Of a DNA stretch of 64,000 nucleotides, positions 4,449 to 19,595 are shown one piece after another. The DNA is from Elusimicrobiota bacterium (GTDB taxonomy: Bacteria > Elusimicrobiota > Elusimicrobia > UBA1565 > UBA9628). A model generated the notes under the pieces. That model saw only the letters and a program-made list of their open reading frames with translations. It did no database searches and was not told the origin of the DNA. How positions within the stretch are numbered: the first letter of the stretch is position 1; each line of letters begins with the position of its first letter. The stretch lies in contig JAPLKL010000051.1 of NCBI GenBank assembly GCA_026388095.1, positions 73,713 through 137,712 on the forward strand. The letters are read 5' to 3'. A program made the position numbers and the translations under genes.

Positions 4449-5575
4449 ACCCGGAGGACGCGGCGCCCCAGATCGTCATCCTGAGCTCCATCGAATGGGG
4501 AGCGGCCTGGCAGCGCCATCAGATGTTCGCGGCGCAGTTCGCCGCGGCCGGCCATGAAGTCTTCTTCGTCGAGAACACGGGCTTCCGCAACCCAGGCCCG
4601 CGGGACCTGGGCCGCCTTTGGAGCCGCCTGGCCGGGCCGGCCGGCGGCGCCAGCAACCCCCGCCCGGCCGGGGTGAGCATCGTCTCCCCCCTCGTCCTGC
4701 CGCCCACCTCGGGGGCCTTCCGCCGGGCCAACGCCGCGGTCTTCATACCGCGCCTGCTGGCCCAGTTGTGCCGGCTCGGCCTGCGGCCGCGGCCGGTGGT
4801 CATCGCCTATTTCGCCACGGAGACCACCTTGGAACTGCTGCGGCGGCTGGATGCGTCCGTGGTGGTCTATGACTGCGCCTCCAACTTCCGCGCCCACCCC
4901 CGGGTTCCCGCCGATTTCCCGCGCCAGGAGGCCGAGTTGCTGCGCCTGGCGGGCCTGGTGGTCTGCGACTCGGACTTCCTCTTGCGCCAGAAGCAGGCCG
5001 AGCACCCCCGGGTGGTCCAGATCCACCAGGGCGTCAGCGAGGATTTCCTCGAGGCGAAGCCGCCGCGTCCGGATTTCCGCCGCTTCTGCTACTACGGGAC
5101 CTGGGTCCCGGACCTGGATCCGGCCTTCTTGATCGCCCTGGCAGAAGCGGGCTTCGAGGTGACGGTCAGCGGCTTCTGCAAAGGACAGCCGCCCGACTGG
5201 CCCCCATCCATCCGGCGCTTGCCCCCCGCGCCCCTGGAAGGACTGGTCAAGCGGCTGGAGGAGTTCGACGTTTTCCTGCTCCCCCACAAGCTCACCCAGT
5301 TCCATCTGGGCGTCATCCCGGCCAAGATCTACGAGATCATGGCCATGGGCCGCCCCGTGCTGGCCACCCCTTTGCCATCCCTGGCGCCCCTGAAGCGGCT
5401 CGTCCACATCGCCGATTCCCCGGCCGACTGGGTGCGCGTCGCCCGGGACCTTCCCAGGACCGAGACCGCGGCCCTGCGGGAGGAGCGCATCGCCCTGGCC
5501 AAAGAGCATACCCATGCCAAGGAATTCCGGCGCTTCCAAGAGGCGGTCCGAGGGGCTTGGGAGCGAAATAGATAA
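4445..5575 (+). CDS. glycosyltransferase (GT4-like C-terminal domain)
   Basis: C-terminal E(x7)E-type region EIMAMGRPVLATP; codon bias favours + strand over antisense ORF 4433..5578. Confidence 0.6.
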   Translation: MNPEDAAPQIVILSSIEWGAAWQRHQMFAAQFAAAGHEVFFVENTGFRNPGPRDLGRLWSRLAGPAGGASNPRPAGVSIVSPLVLPPTSGAFRRANAAVFIPRLLAQLCRLGLRPRPVVIAYFATETTLELLRRLDASVVVYDCASNFRAHPRVPADFPRQEAELLRLAGLVVCDSDFLLRQKQAEHPRVVQIHQGVSEDFLEAKPPRPDFRRFCYYGTWVPDLDPAFLIALAEAGFEVTVSGFCKGQPPDWPPSIRRLPPAPLEGLVKRLEEFDVFLLPHKLTQFHLGVIPAKIYEIMAMGRPVLATPLPSLAPLKRLVHIADSPADWVRVARDLPRTETAALREERIALAKEHTHAKEFRRFQEAVRGAWERNR

Positions 5576-5589
5576 CAAAAGTCATCGTA

Positions 5590-5628
5590 TTGTAAGCGGG
5601 GTGCTCTGACCGACTGAGCTCGGGGCAA
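5590..5628 (-). other. truncated tRNA-Val(TAC)-like 5' half (pseudo-tRNA / recombination scar)
   Basis: minus strand reads GA-GCTC-AGTCGGTCA-GAGC-A-CCCCG-CTTACAA: D-arm, anticodon stem 5' half and anticodon loop with TAC; homology stops exactly after the anticodon loop; no T-arm. Confidence 0.4.
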
Positions 5629-5707
5629 CTACGCTGATTTCACAAAGAAAAACCGGGGCATTGCTCGACCTCCCAAAAATGGATAGGTGCCCATCTGGGT
5701 GTCCACG

Positions 5708-6535
5708 CTACAGGTTGGCGATGAGCCTTTCCATGACAAGCCGCGCCGCCGCTCCAGCATCATAGCGCACAGCCGCAGCCAGTAACGGGCTCAAGTCGTC
5801 ATTGAATTGGCGCAAGGCGACTTTGGCCGTCAGGTTTTTCTCGAACTCACTGCGGCTCACCTTGCTGCCTTCGGCTGCCATGTACTTGCGGAAGGTCTCC
5901 ACAATCCGCCTCGGATCGCTTCCCTTCATGCCCAGACCCCGCCACAAGTCGAACAGATCCCGCCCCTTGCGACGCTGATAAAGCGCGCGCAGCTTGGTGG
6001 CCAAGAGCTCATCAAGAGTGCAGGTTCGCACCTCCGCCCGTCCTTCAAACCATGGCGATTGGATGGCGAATGGATGGCCGATAGCTCCGAACACAGTGAA
6101 GTGCTCCCGGGTATTGATCTCGATCTTAAGCCGAAGCGGGACCACGGGCGCTATCTCGGATTCCATGCGATAGCGCAACGTCACATTATCCGGGCCGCTT
6201 TCCCGGCGGGGCACCCCCAGGATGGGATCGAGCCGGGAACGGATGGCGTTGAGCACCGGGCCGATGGGACCGGCGGAAACCTGCACGAGGTCGATGTCTT
6301 CGGAGTATCGTTGAGGCGACGTGACGAACAGCTTGTGCAGCGCTGTCCCTCCGCGCAGGAGGAGCGCCGGGGCCAGAACTGGGTCTTGGAATATCTCGAT
6401 GAGCGCTCGGCACAGGATCAAGTCCTGCTCGACTTGCGCATCCTGCGGCCAGGGGGCGACATTGCGCCAATGAGTGATTGCGGCCTGGGGAATCATGCTT
6501 CCGGCTCCGGCCGGGCGTTGATCAGGACATGCCAC
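5708..6535 (-). CDS. abiEii: AbiEii/AbiGii-family nucleotidyltransferase toxin (type IV TA / abortive infection)
   Basis: GGTALHKLF ... RYSEDIDLV nucleotidyltransferase motifs characteristic of DUF1814/AbiEii; overlaps upstream AbiEi gene by ~40 nt. Confidence 0.8.
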   Translation of the reverse strand: MACPDQRPAGAGSMIPQAAITHWRNVAPWPQDAQVEQDLILCRALIEIFQDPVLAPALLLRGGTALHKLFVTSPQRYSEDIDLVQVSAGPIGPVLNAIRSRLDPILGVPRRESGPDNVTLRYRMESEIAPVVPLRLKIEINTREHFTVFGAIGHPFAIQSPWFEGRAEVRTCTLDELLATKLRALYQRRKGRDLFDLWRGLGMKGSDPRRIVETFRKYMAAEGSKVSRSEFEKNLTAKVALRQFNDDLSPLLAAAVRYDAGAAARLVMERLIANL

Positions 6536-7293
6536 TTCCGGCTTTCAGTTGCCCCAGCAATTGGAGCTGTCGGATCAAGGGGACGCGGCGGAGCATCTTT
6601 GACCATGTTGAGGAACCCTTTGGACAGATCATGCCGCCGGAGCATATCCAGGAGGTATCCTAGCCGCTGGGCCACAATGTCGTCTCCATACCGCTTCACC
6701 GTATCTCCGAGCTTGCCGGGGTCCAGTTTCTCGGCTAATTCCGAGATGATCGTGACCACGTTATCCAGTCCTCCAGAGGCCTTGCAGTAGCGGACGAGGT
6801 CCCAGGCCGTGGTCTCTGGAGTGGATGCCATCAGGATGCCGGTCGGGGTCTTGACCTCTTGTGTCTGCGAACGATCGAAGGGACCCTTGCCGTGGAAGCG
6901 GATCAAGACGTTGCCCGCCCGAACGGGGCGGAGGGCGCGCTCAGGAATCATGACTTGAAATTCCTGGGGCCGGTGATGGGCAGCTCCGTGCAACTGCGCT
7001 GCGGAGAGAAGCCCCACATAGTATGGCCGAGCCATGTCTTTCATGAGTTCGTGGATGAACCACTCCGGCGGCAAGATGCCGGCAGAGCGATGCTGCGGGT
7101 CCACGATCACATAGAATCCGGATCTGGGCATGACGAGGCACCCTGCCTTGACCAGGCGATGCAGGGACATGTAAACAGCCGCCGGCGATGTGCCCAATCT
7201 TCTGTCGGCTTCTTCGCGAGCGAAGGTGTAGCGGCCCTGCCCAAGAAGTTCTTCAATAAACCCGCCGGCCAGAATCGGAGAAGTCCGTTCCAT
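6493..7293 (-). CDS. abiEi: AbiEi-family antitoxin/transcriptional regulator
   Basis: N-terminal wHTH (PAAVYMSLHRLVKAGCL), C-terminal AbiEi-like domain; positioned directly upstream of AbiEii on the same strand. Confidence 0.75.
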   Translation of the reverse strand: MERTSPILAGGFIEELLGQGRYTFAREEADRRLGTSPAAVYMSLHRLVKAGCLVMPRSGFYVIVDPQHRSAGILPPEWFIHELMKDMARPYYVGLLSAAQLHGAAHHRPQEFQVMIPERALRPVRAGNVLIRFHGKGPFDRSQTQEVKTPTGILMASTPETTAWDLVRYCKASGGLDNVVTIISELAEKLDPGKLGDTVKRYGDDIVAQRLGYLLDMLRRHDLSKGFLNMVKDAPPRPLDPTAPIAGATESRKWHVLINARPEPEA

Positions 7294-7333: not shown

Positions 7334-7406
7334 CCTGTTTTATTGCCCGAAGTCTCGCTGTCCTGCTGCGGAATACTTAGCCGCGAGTTCTCGATTCGCG
7401 CAAGCC

Positions 7407-8045
7407 TCAGGGGCGGGCCACAAAATCGAACCCATCGCGGCCCAAGCGGCTCATGAGCTTCTGGATGACCCCGCGAGCATCGTCGTCCGGTCCAGAGATG
7501 TATCGGGGCTTCCCATCCGGCCCGCCGAAAATGATGTCCTGTTGGTGGGTCAGTTCCTCCGTCCCCAGGACGTGGCGGGACAAATTAAAATCGGGATGGG
7601 GGTCGAATCCCAGCCTCCCGGCATATTCGATCGCCCCGAAGATGATCTCCTTGGCGTGATTGATCCCGATTGGTTTAGGCGCCTGCTCCGGAAAACTTTT
7701 GGCCAGGAAGTCCCCCTCGAATCTTGCGACCGGCAAATCCGCGTTGCAGAAGGTGTTCTTTAGTCCCGAACAGAAAACATCCACCAAGTAGAGCCCCAGG
7801 ATGAGGTTGCCGTTTGGCTGGCGCCGGGTGACCGCGATCGTTGCGAGGCCCGAGTCCCTCCAGTTGGGATTGATAAGGCAGGCATCGACGGGGTACTCGT
7901 CGGAGGACTTGATGAGGTGCTTCTTCTCAGCCTTGGACCAGGCAACCGCCGTGACAGGTGCCTGTGCCTCTTCTTTAGGCAGGCAGCATTTCTTATATTT
8001 CCTGCCGCTACCGCAGGGACAAGGATCGTTTCTCCCGGCGCTCAT
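7407..8045 (-). CDS. SEC-C metal-binding motif protein of unknown function
   Basis: N-terminal DPCPCGSGRKYKKCC (SecA C-terminal-type zinc motif) followed by ~190 aa uncharacterised domain; GGAAGGG RBS. Confidence 0.6.
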   Translation of the reverse strand: MSAGRNDPCPCGSGRKYKKCCLPKEEAQAPVTAVAWSKAEKKHLIKSSDEYPVDACLINPNWRDSGLATIAVTRRQPNGNLILGLYLVDVFCSGLKNTFCNADLPVARFEGDFLAKSFPEQAPKPIGINHAKEIIFGAIEYAGRLGFDPHPDFNLSRHVLGTEELTHQQDIIFGGPDGKPRYISGPDDDARGVIQKLMSRLGRDGFDFVARP

Positions 8046-8080
8046 GCCGGGATACCCTTCCGCGTCATTCGCCGCCCCCC

Positions 8081-8971
8081 TCAGTGCAGCATCTCGGGAT
8101 TCCGCAGGACCACAACACCCGACTTACCGCAGTCGGGACAGCACCAATGGACCTCCGAAGGCTTCCTGAGGACGTTGATGATCCCGAGGCACCATCTCCT
8201 TGAAGGCCCGGCCATGCAAGGCACCATGGAAGGCAACTCGTCATCGATCGGCATGTCAGCGGCCGAGGCGATGATCGCGTGGAAAAAGCGGGCCATCTCC
8301 TTCGTGCGCCTTGGGGCCGCGGGATCGGCCAACGCCCCATCGAAATGCTCGGGCTTGGTAATGAAGGCCGGCGCCTCCCTCGGCGAAGGCGTGGGCCCGC
8401 CTACCGAACGGCCAGGCGCAGCGGCAGCAGCAGCGGCGCCGGGACCCGAAACGGAAGGACTGGGCACAAGCGGAACCGCGTTCTTTATCTCCTGGTACAA
8501 ATACCAACCGACCCCTTTCGATCCAAGAACCCGCTCTTCGGTCGGCGGACTGACCAGGACGTCCCTGAGGCTCTTATACCGGAGCCTGACGAGAGCTTTC
8601 ACCGCTCGTGATGAAAGTCCTCCCCATTCTCTCCGAAGGAACTTGTTCCTCTCCATCTTCCGACTGATGTTCCAAATATTCGACGAGCTGCAGCGCAGTT
8701 CCTTGGCGATCTCCGCCTGCGTCCTACCCTGAGCCAAGCGAGTCTTCACCAAGCCATAGAGTTCAGCATGGACCGCCTCGTCAATATCCACCCAGGCCAG
8801 GTGCGGGAAGCGGCGCTGAATGACCCCATACCCACCGCCCGTCTTAAATTGACGGAGGATCTCGCGGATAGGAATGCCCTTGACCAAAAGAGACTCTGGT
8901 CCGGACGCGGAGTCAGTCATTTCTTCCGGCATTATACCAAAGCGCCTTCTCACGAGCCCAAAGGACGCCAT
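8081..8971 (-). CDS. HTH-domain protein with C-terminal zinc ribbon, unknown function (start uncertain: 8971, 8932 or 8920)
   Basis: sigma-70 region-4-like HTH (TQAEIAKELRCSSSNIWNISRKM), poly-Ala linker, C-terminal CCPDCGKSG. Confidence 0.5.
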   Translation of the reverse strand: MASFGLVRRRFGIMPEEMTDSASGPESLLVKGIPIREILRQFKTGGGYGVIQRRFPHLAWVDIDEAVHAELYGLVKTRLAQGRTQAEIAKELRCSSSNIWNISRKMERNKFLRREWGGLSSRAVKALVRLRYKSLRDVLVSPPTEERVLGSKGVGWYLYQEIKNAVPLVPSPSVSGPGAAAAAAAPGRSVGGPTPSPREAPAFITKPEHFDGALADPAAPRRTKEMARFFHAIIASAADMPIDDELPSMVPCMAGPSRRWCLGIINVLRKPSEVHWCCPDCGKSGVVVLRNPEMLH

Positions 8972-9021: not shown

Positions 9022-9594
9022 ATGACTACTAAAGGCTCGAAAGGCTGGTCGGCCATCCGCCGGCAGTTGATCAATCGGACCACGAGAGAGCTGCTGGCTC
9101 TAGTGAAGGACCTCTATGAGGTCTCGGCAGCAAACCGCGATTTCCTGCAAGCTCGCTTCCGGGGTGAAACGGCCGCCGGCCCGGCGCTGGAGCAATACCG
9201 CCGCACGATAGTGGAACAGTTTTTTCCCCAGCACGGCTTTGGCAAGCTCAAGCTCGCCGACGCCCGCAAAGCCATCCGCGACTATCGCAAAGCCACGGGC
9301 AACCCTGAAGGCACAATCGATCTTCTCCTCACCTATGTGGAGAATGGGACTGAGTTCACGAAGGAGTTCGGCGACATCAACGAAGCCTACTACAACAGTC
9401 TGGACTCCGCCCTCGATGAACTGGCGCGCCTGCTGCTCCAGTCCGGCCCCGCGCTCTATGCCCGGTTCCGGAATCGTGCCCTGCGCGTCAAGGAGCTGGC
9501 CAGGGACATCGGCTGGGGCTATGGGGACTCCGTCGCGGACCAAGTCGCGCGACTCGAAACGAGGTTCGGTCATGTCCAAATCCAAAGCTCATAA
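9022..9594 (+). CDS. hypothetical protein
   Basis: ATG with AGGA RBS 10 nt upstream; divergent from 8081..8971; no recognisable motif. Confidence 0.45.
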   Translation: MTTKGSKGWSAIRRQLINRTTRELLALVKDLYEVSAANRDFLQARFRGETAAGPALEQYRRTIVEQFFPQHGFGKLKLADARKAIRDYRKATGNPEGTIDLLLTYVENGTEFTKEFGDINEAYYNSLDSALDELARLLLQSGPALYARFRNRALRVKELARDIGWGYGDSVADQVARLETRFGHVQIQSS

Positions 9595-14742: not shown

Positions 14743-16007
14743 AGGGCGAAGCGAGCGTGACCCGCCGCCTGCGGCGCAATTCCTTCTGGAAGATTGTGGG
14801 CGACGGAAGCCGCGGCCTTCTGGCGGTGTTCCTGCTCCTGGTCGCGCGCCACTACGGGCCGGCCGCATTCGGCGTGTTCTCCTTGCTCTATGCCGCCGCC
14901 ATCTTCTTCTCCCTCCTGGCCGATCTCGGCCTCAATCTCCTGACCACCCGGCAGATCGCGGCCCACAAGTCGGATCCCGGGGCGTATCTGCAGACCTTTT
15001 TCACCTGCAAGCTCATCATCCTTCCCCTCTGGGTCATCCTGCCGGTCCTCGTCTGCAGACTGTGCCCCTATCCGGGGATATCCATCTCCTTGGTCGCGCT
15101 CTTGGCGGCGTCGTTCGCCATGCGCAATCTCCTGGAATTCTTCGGCGCAATATTCAGCGGCTTCGAGCAGATCCAATATGAAGCCGTCCTGAAGCTGGCC
15201 GCGCACACGCTCTTGCTCGGCCTCGGCATCTGGTTCATGTCCCGAGACCTCTCCATCACCTGGATCGGCGCCGCCATGCTGGGCGGCTACCTTGCGGCCG
15301 CGGTCTGCGGCGCCGTCTGGTGCCAAAGCAAATGGCGGATCCTCCCGCTGGTTTTCCACACCGAGGGACTTGCCATATTGTATGCCGAGGCTCTGCCGCT
15401 GATCTTGATGGGGGCTGGCCTGGCGGCGCTGACCAAATGGAACACGCTGATGCTCGGCTTCTTCGGCGTGGCGGCGGCGCAGATCGGCTGGTTCAGCGCC
15501 TCGGAGAAGGTCATCGCGGCTTTGGAGGTGCTGCCCATGCTGGTCACCGCGGCCAGCTACCCGGTGCTCTCCGACCTGCACAAGAACGACCCCGCCGGCT
15601 TCGCATCCGCCAAGGCCCGCCTGCTCAAGACGTTCCTCGGCATCGGCCTGCTGGCGGGGGCGGCCATCACGCTGTCAAGCGGGCCGATGATCCGCATCCT
15701 CTACGGCGCATCTTACGCCGGCGCCCGCCCGGCATTGTGCCTTCTGGCCTTCGGGCTGACGGCGGCGTTCCCGAACTGCATGCTGCTCAATATCCTGGTG
15801 GCTTCCGGCCGCTCCGCGGACGGCGCGCGCGCCGCCTTGATCGCCTGCGGCGCGAACATCCTGCTGACTTTGGTGCTGATCCCGGCCTGGGGCATCAACG
15901 GCTCGGCCTTGGCCTCGACCTTGGCGCAGGTGGTCCTGTTCGCCGCGGGCTATGCCTTCGCGGCCAAAGCCCGGACCCGGCCCGCCGCGGTGGGCACCCC
16001 CGCATAA
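14733..16007 (+). CDS. wzx: Wzx-type oligosaccharide flippase (polysaccharide biosynthesis protein family)
   Basis: ~12 TM MOP/MATE-like topology, N-terminal RRLRRNSFWKIVGDG. Confidence 0.7.
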   Translation: MVLKGEASVTRRLRRNSFWKIVGDGSRGLLAVFLLLVARHYGPAAFGVFSLLYAAAIFFSLLADLGLNLLTTRQIAAHKSDPGAYLQTFFTCKLIILPLWVILPVLVCRLCPYPGISISLVALLAASFAMRNLLEFFGAIFSGFEQIQYEAVLKLAAHTLLLGLGIWFMSRDLSITWIGAAMLGGYLAAAVCGAVWCQSKWRILPLVFHTEGLAILYAEALPLILMGAGLAALTKWNTLMLGFFGVAAAQIGWFSASEKVIAALEVLPMLVTAASYPVLSDLHKNDPAGFASAKARLLKTFLGIGLLAGAAITLSSGPMIRILYGASYAGARPALCLLAFGLTAAFPNCMLLNILVASGRSADGARAALIACGANILLTLVLIPAWGINGSALASTLAQVVLFAAGYAFAAKARTRPAAVGTPA

Positions 16008-16075
16008 CCCCGCGGTTCTCCAAGCCGGTTTTTCGCGGGACTCCGCATGGGACAGTTTGAAAGGCGATTTTATGC

Positions 16076-16109
16076 TATATTGATATTTGATTACTAATCG
16101 CTCAATATA
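16076..16109. promoter_or_regulatory. 8-bp perfect inverted repeat TATATTGA-N18-TCAATATA with TGcTATATT extended -10
   Basis: read directly in the AT-rich 110-bp spacer before the ATPase gene. Confidence 0.3.
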
Positions 16110-16121
16110 CAAGGTAGAGTC

Positions 16122-17273
16122 ATGCACATCAGACGAAGCGCTCTTCTACAGGATCTTCACCGCAGCGTGAAGGATCATCCGGTCACGGCCATTCTGGGGC
16201 CCCGCCAGTGCGGCAAGACCACGCTGGCTCGCGAATTGAACCGTCAGATCAAGGGGGCGTTCTTCGACCTCGAGAACCGTCAGGACCTAGCCCGCTTGCA
16301 GGACCCGATCCGTGTCTTGGGAGACCTCAGAGGCCTGATCATCTTGGACGAGGTCCAGAAGCAGCCTGGCCTCTTGGAGACCTTGCGGGTCTTGGCTGAC
16401 CGCCGGCCGCGGCGGGCGTCCTTCCTTATCCTCGGGAGCGCTTCGCCCGATCTTCTCCGGCATTCTTCGGAGTCCCTGGCCGGGCGGGTCCACTTCGTCG
16501 ACATGGGGGGATTCGACTTGGCCGAAGCGCCCCATATCGACCGGCTCTGGCTGCGGGGGGGCTTCCCGCCCTCCTACCTGGCCGCAAGCCTCGCCAAGAG
16601 CTTCGCTTGGCGGGAGGACTTCCTGCAGACTTTCCTGGAGCGCGATATCCCGCAGTGGGGCATCCGCGTGCCGGCTGCTACGCTCAGGCGCTTCTGGGGG
16701 ATGCTCGCCCACTACCACGGACAGACCTGGAACGCTTCCGAGATTGCATCCTCGTTGGGGACGGCCCATACCACCACGCAGCATTACCTCGAAATCCTGA
16801 CCGGCGCCTTCATGGTCAGGCAGTTGCCGCCTTGGCACGAGAACCTGGGCAAGCGACTGGTCAAAGCGCCCAAGGTGTATATCCGGGATTCGGGGCTCTT
16901 CCATTCACTCATGAGCCTCGAAACCAAGGAAAGTCTTTACGCTCACCCGAAATTCGGGGCATCCTGGGAAGGCTTTGCCCTGGAGCAGCTGGTCCGGCGA
17001 GTCCCTGACCGGCATGCCTATTTCTGGGGGACCCACGCCGGAGCGGAATTGGACCTGCTGCTCATCCGCGACGGTAAACGCTGGGGGTTTGAATTCAAAG
17101 TGAGCGAGGCGCCGAGCCTCACGAAATCGATGCGCATCTCCTTGAAGGATCTGAACCTCCAGCGTCTCTGGGCGGTCTATCCTGGGGCACACCGGTTTCC
17201 GATGGCTGATCGTATCGAGGCGATCCCTCTAGCTCAGGCCCTGCAGCTAGACGTGGTGAAGATGAATCATTAG
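16122..17273 (+). CDS. AAA-family ATPase with DUF4143-type C-terminal domain
   Basis: Walker A GPRQCGKTT, Walker B IILDEVQ; inserted inside the glycan operon after an AT-rich spacer. Confidence 0.75.
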   Translation: MHIRRSALLQDLHRSVKDHPVTAILGPRQCGKTTLARELNRQIKGAFFDLENRQDLARLQDPIRVLGDLRGLIILDEVQKQPGLLETLRVLADRRPRRASFLILGSASPDLLRHSSESLAGRVHFVDMGGFDLAEAPHIDRLWLRGGFPPSYLAASLAKSFAWREDFLQTFLERDIPQWGIRVPAATLRRFWGMLAHYHGQTWNASEIASSLGTAHTTTQHYLEILTGAFMVRQLPPWHENLGKRLVKAPKVYIRDSGLFHSLMSLETKESLYAHPKFGASWEGFALEQLVRRVPDRHAYFWGTHAGAELDLLLIRDGKRWGFEFKVSEAPSLTKSMRISLKDLNLQRLWAVYPGAHRFPMADRIEAIPLAQALQLDVVKMNH

Positions 17274-17275
17274 CG

Positions 17276-18067
17276 ATGCGGCTCTCCATCATCATCGTCC
17301 ACCACAACGCGCATGCCTATTTGAGGTCATGCCTGCGTTCCGTCCAAAAGGCCGGGGCGGGGCTTTCCGTGGAGACCATCGTGGTCGACAACGCCTCGCA
17401 GGACATGGCCGCGCTGACGCAAGAACACCCGCAGGCGCTTTGGGTTTTGAACAAGGACAACGTGGGCTGGGGAGCCGCGATCAACCAAGGCGCGGCGAAA
17501 AGCCGTGGCGACCTCCTGGTCTTCCTGAATCCGGACGCCGAGCTTTTGCCGGATTCTCTGAAGGAACTGCATGCCTTCTGCTCGGGGAAGACGGCGGAGC
17601 GACTGGGACCGGTCGGAGGCAAGCTCCTGTTTTCAGACGGCAGGCTCCAGCCCTCCTGCGGCCCTTTCCCACGCCTGCTCAGAATGCTTTGGCGCCGTCT
17701 ATTGCCGCCGGCAAAGAGGAAATACCACCTCCGCCAGCCTGATAGCGCCAGCCCGGTGGATTGGGTCACAGGCGCCTTCATGGCCGTCCGGCGATCTGTT
17801 TTCGAGGAATTGGGAGGCTTCGACAGCGGCTTTTTCCTTTATTATGAGGACGTGGACTTATGCATCCGGGCCGGGCAAAATGGCTATCCCGCCTATTTTC
17901 TCCCAGGGGCTGTCGCCTATCATCACCATCCCCATGCCGTGCGCGCCAAGCCGGATCCGCGACTCAGGCGCATCATCCAGGATTCAAGGTCGCGCTACTT
18001 TGAGAAGCACCGTCCGGCCTGGGAGCAGTGGGGCCTGAAACAACTACAACGCTTGGAGAACGATTGA
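17276..18067 (+). CDS. GT2 glycosyltransferase (rhamnosyltransferase-like)
   Basis: IIIVHHN ... VVDNAS ... YYEDVDL GT-A motifs. Confidence 0.8.
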   Translation: MRLSIIIVHHNAHAYLRSCLRSVQKAGAGLSVETIVVDNASQDMAALTQEHPQALWVLNKDNVGWGAAINQGAAKSRGDLLVFLNPDAELLPDSLKELHAFCSGKTAERLGPVGGKLLFSDGRLQPSCGPFPRLLRMLWRRLLPPAKRKYHLRQPDSASPVDWVTGAFMAVRRSVFEELGGFDSGFFLYYEDVDLCIRAGQNGYPAYFLPGAVAYHHHPHAVRAKPDPRLRRIIQDSRSRYFEKHRPAWEQWGLKQLQRLEND

Positions 18068-18119
18068 TAAGGCCTTTCCATAGGATGTGAGCCTTGGGAG
18101 CCATCAAGAGTTAAGCGCC

Positions 18120-19595
18120 ATGTCACGACTTCTCTTTGTCTACTCACAAGACCAGATATATTCATCACAGCATCCGATCGAGTTCTTTGAATACGTGCCA
18201 CTCGGGATCTCTTACATCAGCGCGCTCCTCAGGCAGCACGGTTGCGCCACCGACCTGGCCGTACTCTCCCCCTCAGCTCCCAGAAAGAGCCGGAACATTC
18301 TTGAGCGCAAGATTGCAGCCTTTGGCCCGGACATAATTGGATACTCTGCCGTCAGTACCCAGTTTCCCTTCCTCTCATCGGTCGCTGCTGAAGTCCATGC
18401 CCGGCGCCCGACGCTGTTTCAGATCATAGGCGGAGTTCACGCCACACTCGCGCCGGAAGAGGCTATCAAAGGGCCCTTCGACGCTCTCTGCGTCGGCGAG
18501 GGCGAACTCCCCCTCCTCGAATTGACGAAAACCCTGGCAGCAAAGTCCCCGCTAGCGCCCATTCCGAACCTCTGGATCAAGCACAATGGCGGCATCCTCG
18601 AATCTGCACCTCGGCCATTTCTGGACGATCTGGATAGCCTGCCATTCCCGGATCGAAGCATCTGGACCCAATGGATTCATGTCCCGACCTCGCCGCGGTG
18701 GTCCATCCTCCTCGGCCGCGGTTGTCCTTTCGAATGCACGTACTGCAGCAATCACGCCTTGAAACGCCTGGCGCCCGGCCCCTACGTTCGATTCCGCTCA
18801 CCAGAGAATATCCTGCGCGAGCTCGATGCGCTGACTGCTCAGTATCCGGCAATGCGGGAATTCTATCTGGAAGTCGAGACCATAGGACTGCGCAAGGACT
18901 GGGCGCTGGCGCTCTGCGCAGCATTGGCGGATTCCAACGCGAAACGGCCCGCCCCCTTGGCGTTCTCGGCGAATCTCCGGATATCCCCCGGCTGCGATTT
19001 CGTGGGACTCTTCGCCGCCATGAGGAAAGCCAACTTCACTCAGGTGAACATCGGCCTGGAATCCGGCAGCGAGCGTGTCCGCCGCCAGATCCTGCACCGC
19101 ATCTACTCGAACCAAGACGTGCTAAGAACCGTCGCGCAAGCGCGCGATGCCGGCCTGCGGATATCCCTGTTCAACATGGTCGGATTGCCTGGGGAGACAC
19201 CAGCCGACTTCCAGGAGACAGTGGCGGTCAACCGCGCTTGCCGCCCCGACAACCACAGCACGTCGATCTTCTACCCTTATCCGGGGACTCGCCTGCATGA
19301 GCTTTGCGCTGAGCGCGGACTCCTGCCGCCCGCGGGCCTGCGTGGCGACGTAGAGCGCTGCGCCCCGTGTCTGCAGTTGCCGGAATTCCCCCCGCGCGAG
19401 GTCCGCCGGGCCTTTGTCTGGTTCGATTATCATGTCTACAAGGGGATCCGGCCGATGCACCGCATCCTACCGCGGGTCGCCGGCGCATGGCTGCGTGCCC
19501 ATCCAAGGCTCATGAGCCTAGCCCGTCGCATCGTGCGCAATACGACCGTTGCCCGCGCGATCCGATTGGTGCCGCGATTGCGCAGCTATTTCTAG
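18120..19595 (+). CDS. B12-binding domain radical SAM enzyme (class B rSAM, probable methyltransferase)
   Basis: N-terminal cobalamin-binding domain, CPFECTYC CxxxCxxC motif. Confidence 0.8.
   Translation: MSRLLFVYSQDQIYSSQHPIEFFEYVPLGISYISALLRQHGCATDLAVLSPSAPRKSRNILERKIAAFGPDIIGYSAVSTQFPFLSSVAAEVHARRPTLFQIIGGVHATLAPEEAIKGPFDALCVGEGELPLLELTKTLAAKSPLAPIPNLWIKHNGGILESAPRPFLDDLDSLPFPDRSIWTQWIHVPTSPRWSILLGRGCPFECTYCSNHALKRLAPGPYVRFRSPENILRELDALTAQYPAMREFYLEVETIGLRKDWALALCAALADSNAKRPAPLAFSANLRISPGCDFVGLFAAMRKANFTQVNIGLESGSERVRRQILHRIYSNQDVLRTVAQARDAGLRISLFNMVGLPGETPADFQETVAVNRACRPDNHSTSIFYPYPGTRLHELCAERGLLPPAGLRGDVERCAPCLQLPEFPPREVRRAFVWFDYHVYKGIRPMHRILPRVAGAWLRAHPRLMSLARRIVRNTTVARAIRLVPRLRSYF

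Follow-up and report, generated by a model that had tools for sequence, protein, structure and literature searches.

Two unrelated single proteins tagged with a SEC-C motif have been reported to confer antiphage phenotypes. Rugutis, a single-gene antiphage system from a lactococcal plasmid (pUCCL633_059), is a protein of 359 amino acids (aa) that combines an N-terminal SEC-C motif with a confidently predicted domain that has no match in the PDB (PMC11381338, PMC13064643); its phenotype has been shown by experiment, with the phage large terminase as the trigger (PMC12184496). For PDC-S12, which is YecA/AscA, antiphage activity is described in a preprint, with its authors' warning that this could be an indirect effect. 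In YchJ, basic residues of the SEC-C-type C-terminus contact DNA and a neighbouring Cys senses reactive oxygen species (ROS) (PMC13377102). Here we examine a SEC-C-family gene, together with the helix-turn-helix (HTH) gene directly upstream of it, in a stretch of 64,000 nucleotides (nt) from an Elusimicrobiota bacterium (contig JAPLKL010000051.1, positions 73,713 to 137,712; hereafter the window), where the two genes stand directly before an AbiE pair. AbiE is defined as a two-gene system. A sequence-only reading of this DNA had proposed that the HTH and SEC-C genes form a two-gene module of their own, possibly in defence or regulation.

We find it probable that the accessory genes of this region were acquired independently and make up a mosaic, not a dedicated two-gene system. 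The parts of the mosaic are the AbiE pair, a divergent unit made of a DUF6155-like gene and the SEC-C-family gene, and a cassette holding the HTH gene that sits behind the putative promoter of that unit. The notion of a dedicated module did not hold up: the pairing recurs in 0 of 7 HTH-family contexts (L001-L006 and L066-L068 included) and in 0 of about 50 SEC-C-family contexts (45 genome loci together with L007-L015), the HTH gene is part of an 847-bp indel, and AbiE lies outside the block that a close relative shares. What stands of the proposal is that both proteins are uncharacterised, that their genes are co-oriented and probably co-transcribed, that the HTH protein is a plausible regulator, and that its family clusters with toxin-antitoxin (TA) genes. 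The HTH and SEC-C genes thus look like independently mobile accessory genes. Judging from sequence comparison, the HTH protein is most likely a DNA-binding regulator of a kind carried along with TA and integrative elements; for the SEC-C protein, an unrelated solo protein tethered to nucleic acid is the likeliest reading.

The locus and its Elusimicrobia relative

The comparison that carries the mosaic reading is with another Elusimicrobia metagenome-assembled genome (L020), which holds an ortholog of the SEC-C protein at 91% identity. The features that enter into it are the following.

8081-8927, minus strand: 847-bp cassette bounded by open reading frames (ORFs), made of 7 nt and the HTH gene through its stop codon; missing from L020 (blastn and junction alignment)
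8971-8081, minus strand: the upstream ORF, the HTH gene as first read (296 aa, ORF map)
8081-8920, minus strand: the same gene with its start corrected, encoding a protein with an HTH, a domain like the C-terminal domain of the RNA polymerase (RNAP) alpha subunit (alphaCTD) and a four-Cys domain (279 aa; NCBI model P0121, 100% identity)
8931-8939, minus strand: TGgTATAAT, an extended -10-like element (TGnTATAAT) and putative promoter, read from the sequence and conserved in L020
8046-8080, minus strand: 35-nt spacer, the original 5' untranslated region of the SEC-C gene with a Shine-Dalgarno-like GGAAGGG element; contiguous with the putative promoter in L020
7407-8045, minus strand: SEC-C-family gene, with an N-terminal SecA-type zinc knuckle and a core domain of about 165 aa without family assignment (212 aa; ORF map, homologs, ratio of nonsynonymous to synonymous substitution rates (dN/dS), AlphaFold (AF2) model)
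9022-9594, plus strand: divergent DUF6155-like gene, a 201-aa ORF (190 aa by the NCBI start) within the block shared with L020
7293-6493, minus strand: AbiEi (Pfam and PADLOC)
6535-5708, minus strand: AbiEii, overlapping AbiEi (Pfam and PADLOC)
5708-7293, minus strand: the AbiEi/AbiEii type IV TA pair, an adjoining yet separate unit (Pfam, PADLOC) outside the homology with L020

In blastn, L020 positions 5127-5963 align to window 9718-8928 (86% nucleotide identity) and L020 positions 5966-6649 to window 8080-7397 (92%). Because L020 aligns across both sides at points two bases apart, window 8081-8927 is an indel. The left flank common to the window and L020 terminates, at the upstream cassette junction, in TTTGGTATAATGCC. 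The extended -10-like element precedes the SEC-C start by about 40 nt in L020 and an ATG at 8920 by 10 nt in the window. This ATG, which is inside the cassette, is the true start of the HTH gene and gives the 279-aa protein of the NCBI annotation; since the first 17 or so codons of the 296-aa ORF are shared with L020, which has no HTH gene, they belong to the promoter and flank. We infer from this arrangement that the shared upstream region would end in an extended -10 promoter and that the cassette captured it, so that the HTH gene would now come first in an HTH/SEC-C transcript, as a cistron with almost no leader.

The cassette junctions hold no inverted or direct repeats, no attC site and no target-site duplication. 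An integron cassette or a transposon as the origin of the indel was accordingly rejected: the cassette ends at a stop codon, and attC, inverted repeats and target-site duplication are all missing. A terminator scan of the locus returned terminator-like sites at chance level. Both genes are real, to judge from a dN/dS of 0.25 for the SEC-C gene against its L020 ortholog, which indicates purifying selection, and from conserved homologs of the HTH protein at 37-47% identity.

The homology block with L020 ends at 7397, 10 nt past the SEC-C stop codon, and excludes AbiE. Because it stops there, AbiE is best seen as a separate acquisition; SEC-C orthologs are flanked by HipBA, not by AbiE. The AbiEi and AbiEii assignments reach E values down to 1e-103 (Pfam and PADLOC), and the two genes of an AbiE system are found at 5708-7293 only. 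Neither the HTH protein nor the SEC-C protein matches the AbiEi or AbiEii family.

Much of the layout in the sequence-only reading was borne out: the ORFs, the 35-nt gap, the gene order on the minus strand and AbiE downstream are all present in the ORF map. So was the low-GC islet, in that all five of its genes have a GC fraction of 0.59-0.61, whereas the polysaccharide-biosynthesis genes that flank them have 0.67-0.72. The islet gave no match in Rfam or tRNA scans. A second lower-GC stretch is present at window 16000-19500 (0.56-0.61, versus 0.65-0.72 in the rest of the window).

The HTH protein and its family

The family of the HTH protein is rare. Its relatives number six by word-indexed search and about ten at full length by exhaustive profile search, which gave 260 matches in all. 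They fall into seven independent contexts, of which the window is one and the others are these.

L001/2: a 148/176-aa gene, then an AbiEii-type gene (27.9 bits); the HTH gene heads a co-oriented TA operon
L003/4: PF02594, then MazE, then PIN; the HTH gene heads a co-oriented TA operon
L066: a convergent Phd-type pair, then an integrase homolog
L067/8 (L067 94-1332): a gene for a 129-aa HicA-family toxin 22 nt upstream; on the downstream side, a convergent ST7-like gene
L005: the HTH gene lies between PRiA4_ORF3 (upstream) and a CcbP-like gene (downstream), with no TA gene
L006: uncharacterised genes only, with no TA gene

A TA module lies at most two genes away in five of the seven contexts (the window, L001/2, L003/4, L066 and L067), and across all seven only the HTH gene itself is common. 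The modules are of the AbiE, MazE-PIN, Phd and HicA types, and family members also lie near integrases. Uncharacterised genes downstream of HTH homologs were considered as cryptic members of the SEC-C family and rejected on comparison. A metagenome scan for further HTH loci found L005 again and nothing else. In four assemblies (L001-L004) the HTH-family gene starts at position 119-500, no more than 500 nt from the contig end, which may hint at repeated or mobile DNA immediately before the gene.

These contexts raise the possibility that the HTH protein is itself a TA component, either an antitoxin-like neutraliser or a dedicated regulator of TA operons, which here would be AbiE by way of the SEC-C gene. 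The frequency of nearby TA modules is consistent with this idea, as is the position of the gene at the head of co-oriented TA operons in L001/2 and L003/4. A HicB antitoxin gene normally sits directly after HicA, and in L067 the HTH-family gene, 22 nt after the HicA toxin gene, takes that usual place; the position is seen only in L067/L068, and the HTH protein has no homology to HicB. However, the TA modules are of four unrelated types and their orientations vary (convergent in L066), because of which co-residence in islands fits better than a specific partnership. Furthermore, AbiEi and MazE autoregulate their own operons, and L005 and L006 have no TA gene at all. On balance we regard a role as a TA component as rather unlikely, and favour a regulator that resides on the same islands.

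The domain architecture, given here in the residue numbering of the 296-aa ORF, fits a regulator.

8660-8752, minus strand: HTH (residues ~74-104), preceded by a DUF433-like segment; sub-threshold Pfam matches that recur across homologs
8477-8659, minus strand: alphaCTD-like helix-hairpin-helix (HhH) domain (residues ~105-165); profile matches and Pfam matches of homologs
8369-8458, minus strand: disordered, non-conserved linker that includes a poly-Ala run; predicted local distance difference test (pLDDT) below 50 over residues 172-201, variable in alignment A1
8099-8368, minus strand: four-Cys domain of about 95 aa, with a helical part and a zinc-ribbon-like hairpin; invariant Cys, no Pfam model

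The HTH is seen through many sub-threshold models, among them HTH_7 (E=8e-4), MarR and Sigma70_r4_2 (E=0.04). The sequence-only reading had called it sigma-region-4-like; an HTH is indeed indicated, and the sigma-region-4 type is no better backed than other HTH types. For the domain that follows, the HTH-family profile retrieves multi-alphaCTD repeat proteins at E values of 1e-8 to 1e-11, which themselves match alphaCTD in Pfam at 1e-46 to 1e-79. Two HTH-family homologs match RNA_pol_A_CTD (PF03118) at E=0.0011 with the window protein itself below threshold, and three alphaCTD entries in the PDB match the HTH protein weakly (E~0.7). A Foldseek search of the HTH model against PDB and BFVD returned nothing significant, alphaCTD included. 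Chains of RelE, ParE and colicin E5 recur among its weak matches with template-modelling (TM) scores below 0.3 and were not used.

The poly-Ala linker described earlier is present, inside the variable segment predicted to be disordered. The C-terminal CCPDCG zinc ribbon of the same description is right as to a Cys-rich end, whereas its first Cys (C277) is not conserved; the invariant Cys of the four-Cys domain are C252, C261, C278 and C281. Sequence comparison marks this domain as a widespread mobile module: it has 260 representative matches, is N-terminal in 84 of 125 domain matches, and occurs in fusions with PRiA4_ORF3, TPR or DUF1186 plus SEC-C. PRiA4_ORF3 is its commonest fusion or neighbour partner. 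In L070-L073 (for example L070 133-8054), a stand-alone four-Cys protein of 101 aa lies within a long co-oriented array in which unannotated genes are joined by genes for PIN_4 and DUF7380/EMARD_N proteins. Taken together, the HTH protein would be a DNA-binding transcription regulator of the kind typical of mobile-element and TA islands, with a zinc domain that may contact DNA or a partner.

The SEC-C protein and its family

The SEC-C protein is a member of a widespread family of solo genes with a core fold that is confidently predicted by modelling. Its two parts are as follows.

7977-8033, minus strand: SEC-C motif (residues 5-23, DPCPCGSGRKYKKCC), Pfam PF02810
7416-7904, minus strand: conserved core domain (residues ~48-210), from alignment A2 and residues kept family-wide

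The motif scores 41.3 bits against a PF02810 cut-off of 20.4 over residues 5-23 of the 212-aa protein. The sequence-only reading was right to place the knuckle at the N-terminus and to state that the remaining 190 or so residues have no Pfam match; across Pfam, NCBIfam, PADLOC and PHROGs, the motif is all that was found in this protein. Its profile matches PDB entries for the zinc-knuckle peptides of SecA and YchJ. When Pfam was run across 49 family members, weak matches included, only the SEC-C motif recurred, and the core has no Pfam model. The AF2 model has a pLDDT of 92.5 and a predicted alpha/beta core fold; against the Foldseek libraries nothing was significant, with best E values of 1.0 (PDB) and 0.2 (BFVD).

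There are about 100 clear full-length homologs at E<=1e-20, from at least ten bacterial phyla and from archaea. A scan of species-representative genomes gave 45 SEC-C-family loci, in Elusimicrobia, Planctomycetota, Chloroflexi, Eubacteriales, Nitrospirota, Betaproteobacteria, Geobacter, Acidobacteriota, Hydrogenedentota, Desantisbacteria and Thermoplasmatales archaea. Across alignment A2 the core bears different tags: an N-terminal SEC-C knuckle, a tail rich in lysine and arginine (K/R) in its place, or a SEC-C motif at the C-terminus; distant core members on Nostoc and Rhodococcus plasmids bear an N-terminal HTH instead (hidden Markov model (HMM) E values of 1e-43 and 5e-38). Residues R74, D89, C92, G94, K96, G175, G178 and D188 of the core are kept family-wide, including in these distant HTH-tagged members. 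On the Rhodococcus plasmid pDK1 (L017 5796-7037), a 'UPF0158 family protein' that weakly matches the PRiA4_ORF3 HMM (E=8e-5) directly follows the HTH-tagged core-family gene, with a VbhA/Fic pair nearby.

Some members fuse the core to DUF7986 or to a CcbP-like domain. Two others (L021 5224-6642 and L022 5326-6576) have an extra N-terminal domain of about 225-250 aa, family unassigned, fused to the core, and in L021 the SEC-C knuckle is placed between the two. In Brocadiaceae proteins of 806-839 aa (L034 5437-7995 and L046 5929-8448), the core is fused to DUF6930, DUF7309 and an ST7-like TPR. By hhalign, the core shows no relationship to DUF7986, to DUF6930/DUF7309/ST7 or to PRiA4_ORF3.

The neighbourhoods of the family are varied. 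Individual homologs lie beside HipBA, PemK, HicB, DUF4160/DUF2442 or transposases. Clustering of neighbours at the 37 of 45 loci where the gene could be called found no neighbour family recurring beyond pairs: the 131 nearest neighbours match 128 Pfam families, none more than twice, and mix BrnA/CopG antitoxins with biotin carboxylase and TPP enzymes. Each PADLOC family with a match had it in a single one of these 131 neighbours, which gives no enrichment for defence (no matched control set was used). The strongest of these matches resemble one or two SNF2-type helicases. At two Thermoplasmatales loci (L035 178-1104 and L041 1610-5618) the SEC-C-family gene stands after genes for a SWIM zinc-finger protein and an SNF2-type helicase, and the strong matches to ZorD, DpdE and DrmD models are probably due to these two. 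In L013 (1-14636), and also in L014 and L015, the SEC-C-family gene lies amid duplicated HTH_3 plus Peptidase_M78 cassettes (ImmA/IrrE-like, 387/377 aa) that also hold a 185-aa uncharacterised protein and DUF5128 proteins, with PemK and HicB genes present. The sequence-only reading had named homologs scattered in housekeeping contexts, with no enrichment for defence, as the pattern that would speak against it, and this is largely what the SEC-C protein presents.

Could the SEC-C protein nevertheless be a stand-alone antiphage protein of the abortive-infection type, by analogy with Rugutis or PDC-S12/YecA? Its gross description matches that of Rugutis (PMC11381338, PMC12184496), antiphage activity of PDC-S12/YecA has been put forward in a preprint, the patchy spread of the solo gene over the phyla agrees with horizontal transfer, and some copies adjoin TA genes. 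However, the likeness to Rugutis is one of description only, between proteins of 212 and 359 aa, and the PDC-S12/YecA matches from PADLOC and NCBIfam cover profile positions ~198-220, which is the 20-residue motif only, with no UPF0149 domain. The neighbourhoods are mostly non-defence, and a dN/dS of 0.25 gives no sign of an arms race. We consider an antiphage role of this kind unlikely. An Alkaliphilus match (H29) taken up as a possible Rugutis relative proved to be an unrelated 158-aa protein, and a PLSDB search had no Lactococcus among the matches listed. A pattern scan of IMG/VR found no SEC-C-family member, which is uninformative either way about defence. A viral origin of either the HTH or the SEC-C family was rejected, as the IMG/VR pattern scans gave no relative and matches to phage records span the motif only.

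Alternatively, the SEC-C protein may serve in housekeeping regulation, for instance as a transcription factor that senses redox state or metals in the manner of YchJ, and its position in the islet would be incidental. The analogy draws on the DNA binding and ROS sensing of the SEC-C-type region in YchJ (PMC13377102), and the existence of HTH-tagged family members, the many homologs among metabolic genes and purifying selection agree with it. Yet the SEC-C protein lacks the NTF2-like domain of YchJ (no PF17775 match), and YchJ-type (UPF0225) proteins align to it through the motif only; the patchy distribution, the lack of conserved synteny and the low-GC islet location in this genome also argue against such a role, which seems to us improbable. 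The view that we prefer is that of an unrelated solo protein, in which the tag would tether the core to nucleic acid (or the ribosome) and the core could serve as sensor or effector.

Co-travelling domains and known systems

The divergent gene at 9022-9594 belongs to a large and very conserved family (more than 1200 matches, the top 120 at at least 59% identity). Its protein falls short of DUF6155 (PF19652) with E=0.26 and 11.5 bits against a cut-off of 27; several homologs at this level of identity (at least 59%) carry a precomputed PF19652 match. As a conserved partner of the SEC-C gene the 201-aa ORF was rejected, since it is found only beside the closest orthologs.

Several observations weigh against the mosaic reading. 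A -35/-10 consensus scan called 0 promoters, the TGgTATAAT element included. With two lineages compared, both directions of the 847-bp indel fit, and it may be an insertion here or a deletion in relatives. With 35 nt between them, the same orientation and probably a common transcript, the HTH and SEC-C genes could have products that interact in this genome. Finally, domains of the adjacent genes meet elsewhere. One locus (L069) is a co-oriented array of HTH_17, ST7-like plus SEC-C, DUF6155-like, PRiA4_ORF3 and stand-alone four-Cys genes, followed by an integrase on the opposite strand; its DUF6155-like protein matches that of window 9022-9594 at E=4e-31, and its SEC-C protein has an ST7-like module with 44% identity (E=5e-48) to the core extension in L046. 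The SEC-C core is fused to that same module in L034/L046. A single protein of 522 aa (P0195) joins an N-terminal four-Cys domain, DUF1186 and a C-terminal SEC-C, and in L031 PRiA4_ORF3 is directly downstream of the SEC-C-family gene. These cross-links (L069, P0195, L031 and L034/L046) are sporadic and were noticed post hoc.

The cross-links suggest a loose set of uncharacterised domains that travel together on mobile elements. A bolder version would see the three adjacent genes (DUF6155-like, HTH/alphaCTD/four-Cys, and SEC-C plus core) as a minimal form of a modular conflict or regulatory 'guild' borne by mobile elements, whose parts fuse and co-localise by integrases and TA genes and whose SEC-C-type tags might hold sensors on nucleic acid or ribosomes, in the manner of Rugutis and PDC-S12. 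We think this quite unlikely. Its exchangeable parts would comprise the four-Cys domain, PRiA4_ORF3, the ST7-like TPR, DUF6155, the core tagged with SEC-C, K/R or HTH, and the DUF6930/DUF7309/DUF7986/CcbP-like domains.

We judge it very unlikely that the HTH/zinc and SEC-C proteins function together as a two-gene module in defence or regulation, perhaps in concert with AbiE. The tight spacing, co-orientation and likely common transcript speak for it, as do the low-GC islet that the genes occupy together with AbiE and the domain-level cross-links between four-Cys and SEC-C-tagged proteins. Set against these are the empty counts for the pair in both families, a close relative that keeps the SEC-C gene with neither the HTH gene nor AbiE, and the absence of defence enrichment among SEC-C-family neighbours. 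Of the proposed partnership, only a loose association at the level of domains survives (the L069 array and the P0195 fusion).

We therefore return to the mosaic as the preferred account, in which the locus gives no evidence of a new system. Tight co-oriented adjacency within a low-GC islet is not by itself proof of a module, and base-resolution comparison with a relative here puts one gene between the putative promoter and the coding region of another. The comparison also documents an ORF-bounded cassette without recognisable recombination sites. Two sizeable protein modules, the SEC-C-family core and the four-Cys domain (260 representative clusters), lie outside current family libraries. The web of co-occurring uncharacterised domains on integrative elements gains in interest from the antiphage phenotypes reported for two unrelated SEC-C-tagged single proteins.

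With respect to known systems, the likeness to AbiE is one of position: a genuine AbiEi/AbiEii pair lies directly downstream, and a further HTH-family member likewise has an AbiEii-type gene after it, whereas neither gene studied here is part of AbiE or keeps synteny with it in relatives. PRiA4_ORF3 (MM3350-like) genes are passengers of ISAzba1-type transposons (PMC3942029) and of integrative elements; they partner the four-Cys domain elsewhere, and the window has no PRiA4_ORF3 gene. The four-Cys domain resembles the Fpg/Nei zinc finger (as in NEIL3) in its beta-hairpin zinc ribbon ending in a CxxC knuckle, a marginal match (E=0.04-0.08); it differs in the C-x8-C spacing of its first Cys pair and in having no glycosylase domain. 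As for the RNAP alphaCTD (PF03118) and HhH DNA-binding modules, multi-alphaCTD proteins and the middle domain of the family ('WGGLSxRAV...KGIG') recover each other reciprocally; unlike in RpoA, this domain stands alone between an HTH and a zinc domain, and the window protein remains below the Pfam threshold.

The SEC-C protein shares with Rugutis, compared by description only, an N-terminal SEC-C motif, a fold unmatched in the PDB and a single-gene organisation. It differs in that Rugutis has 359 aa, is plasmid-borne in Firmicutes and has a demonstrated phenotype, while the window protein has 212 aa. With the SecA metal-binding domain, YchJ (UPF0225) and YecA/AscA it has in common the CxC-x8-C[CH] zinc (or iron) knuckle and its flanking basic residues. 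Only this motif of about 20 residues is common, and the window protein has no SecA ATPase; in contrast to these relatives, its motif is N-terminal, and its homologs exchange the motif for a K/R tail or an HTH.

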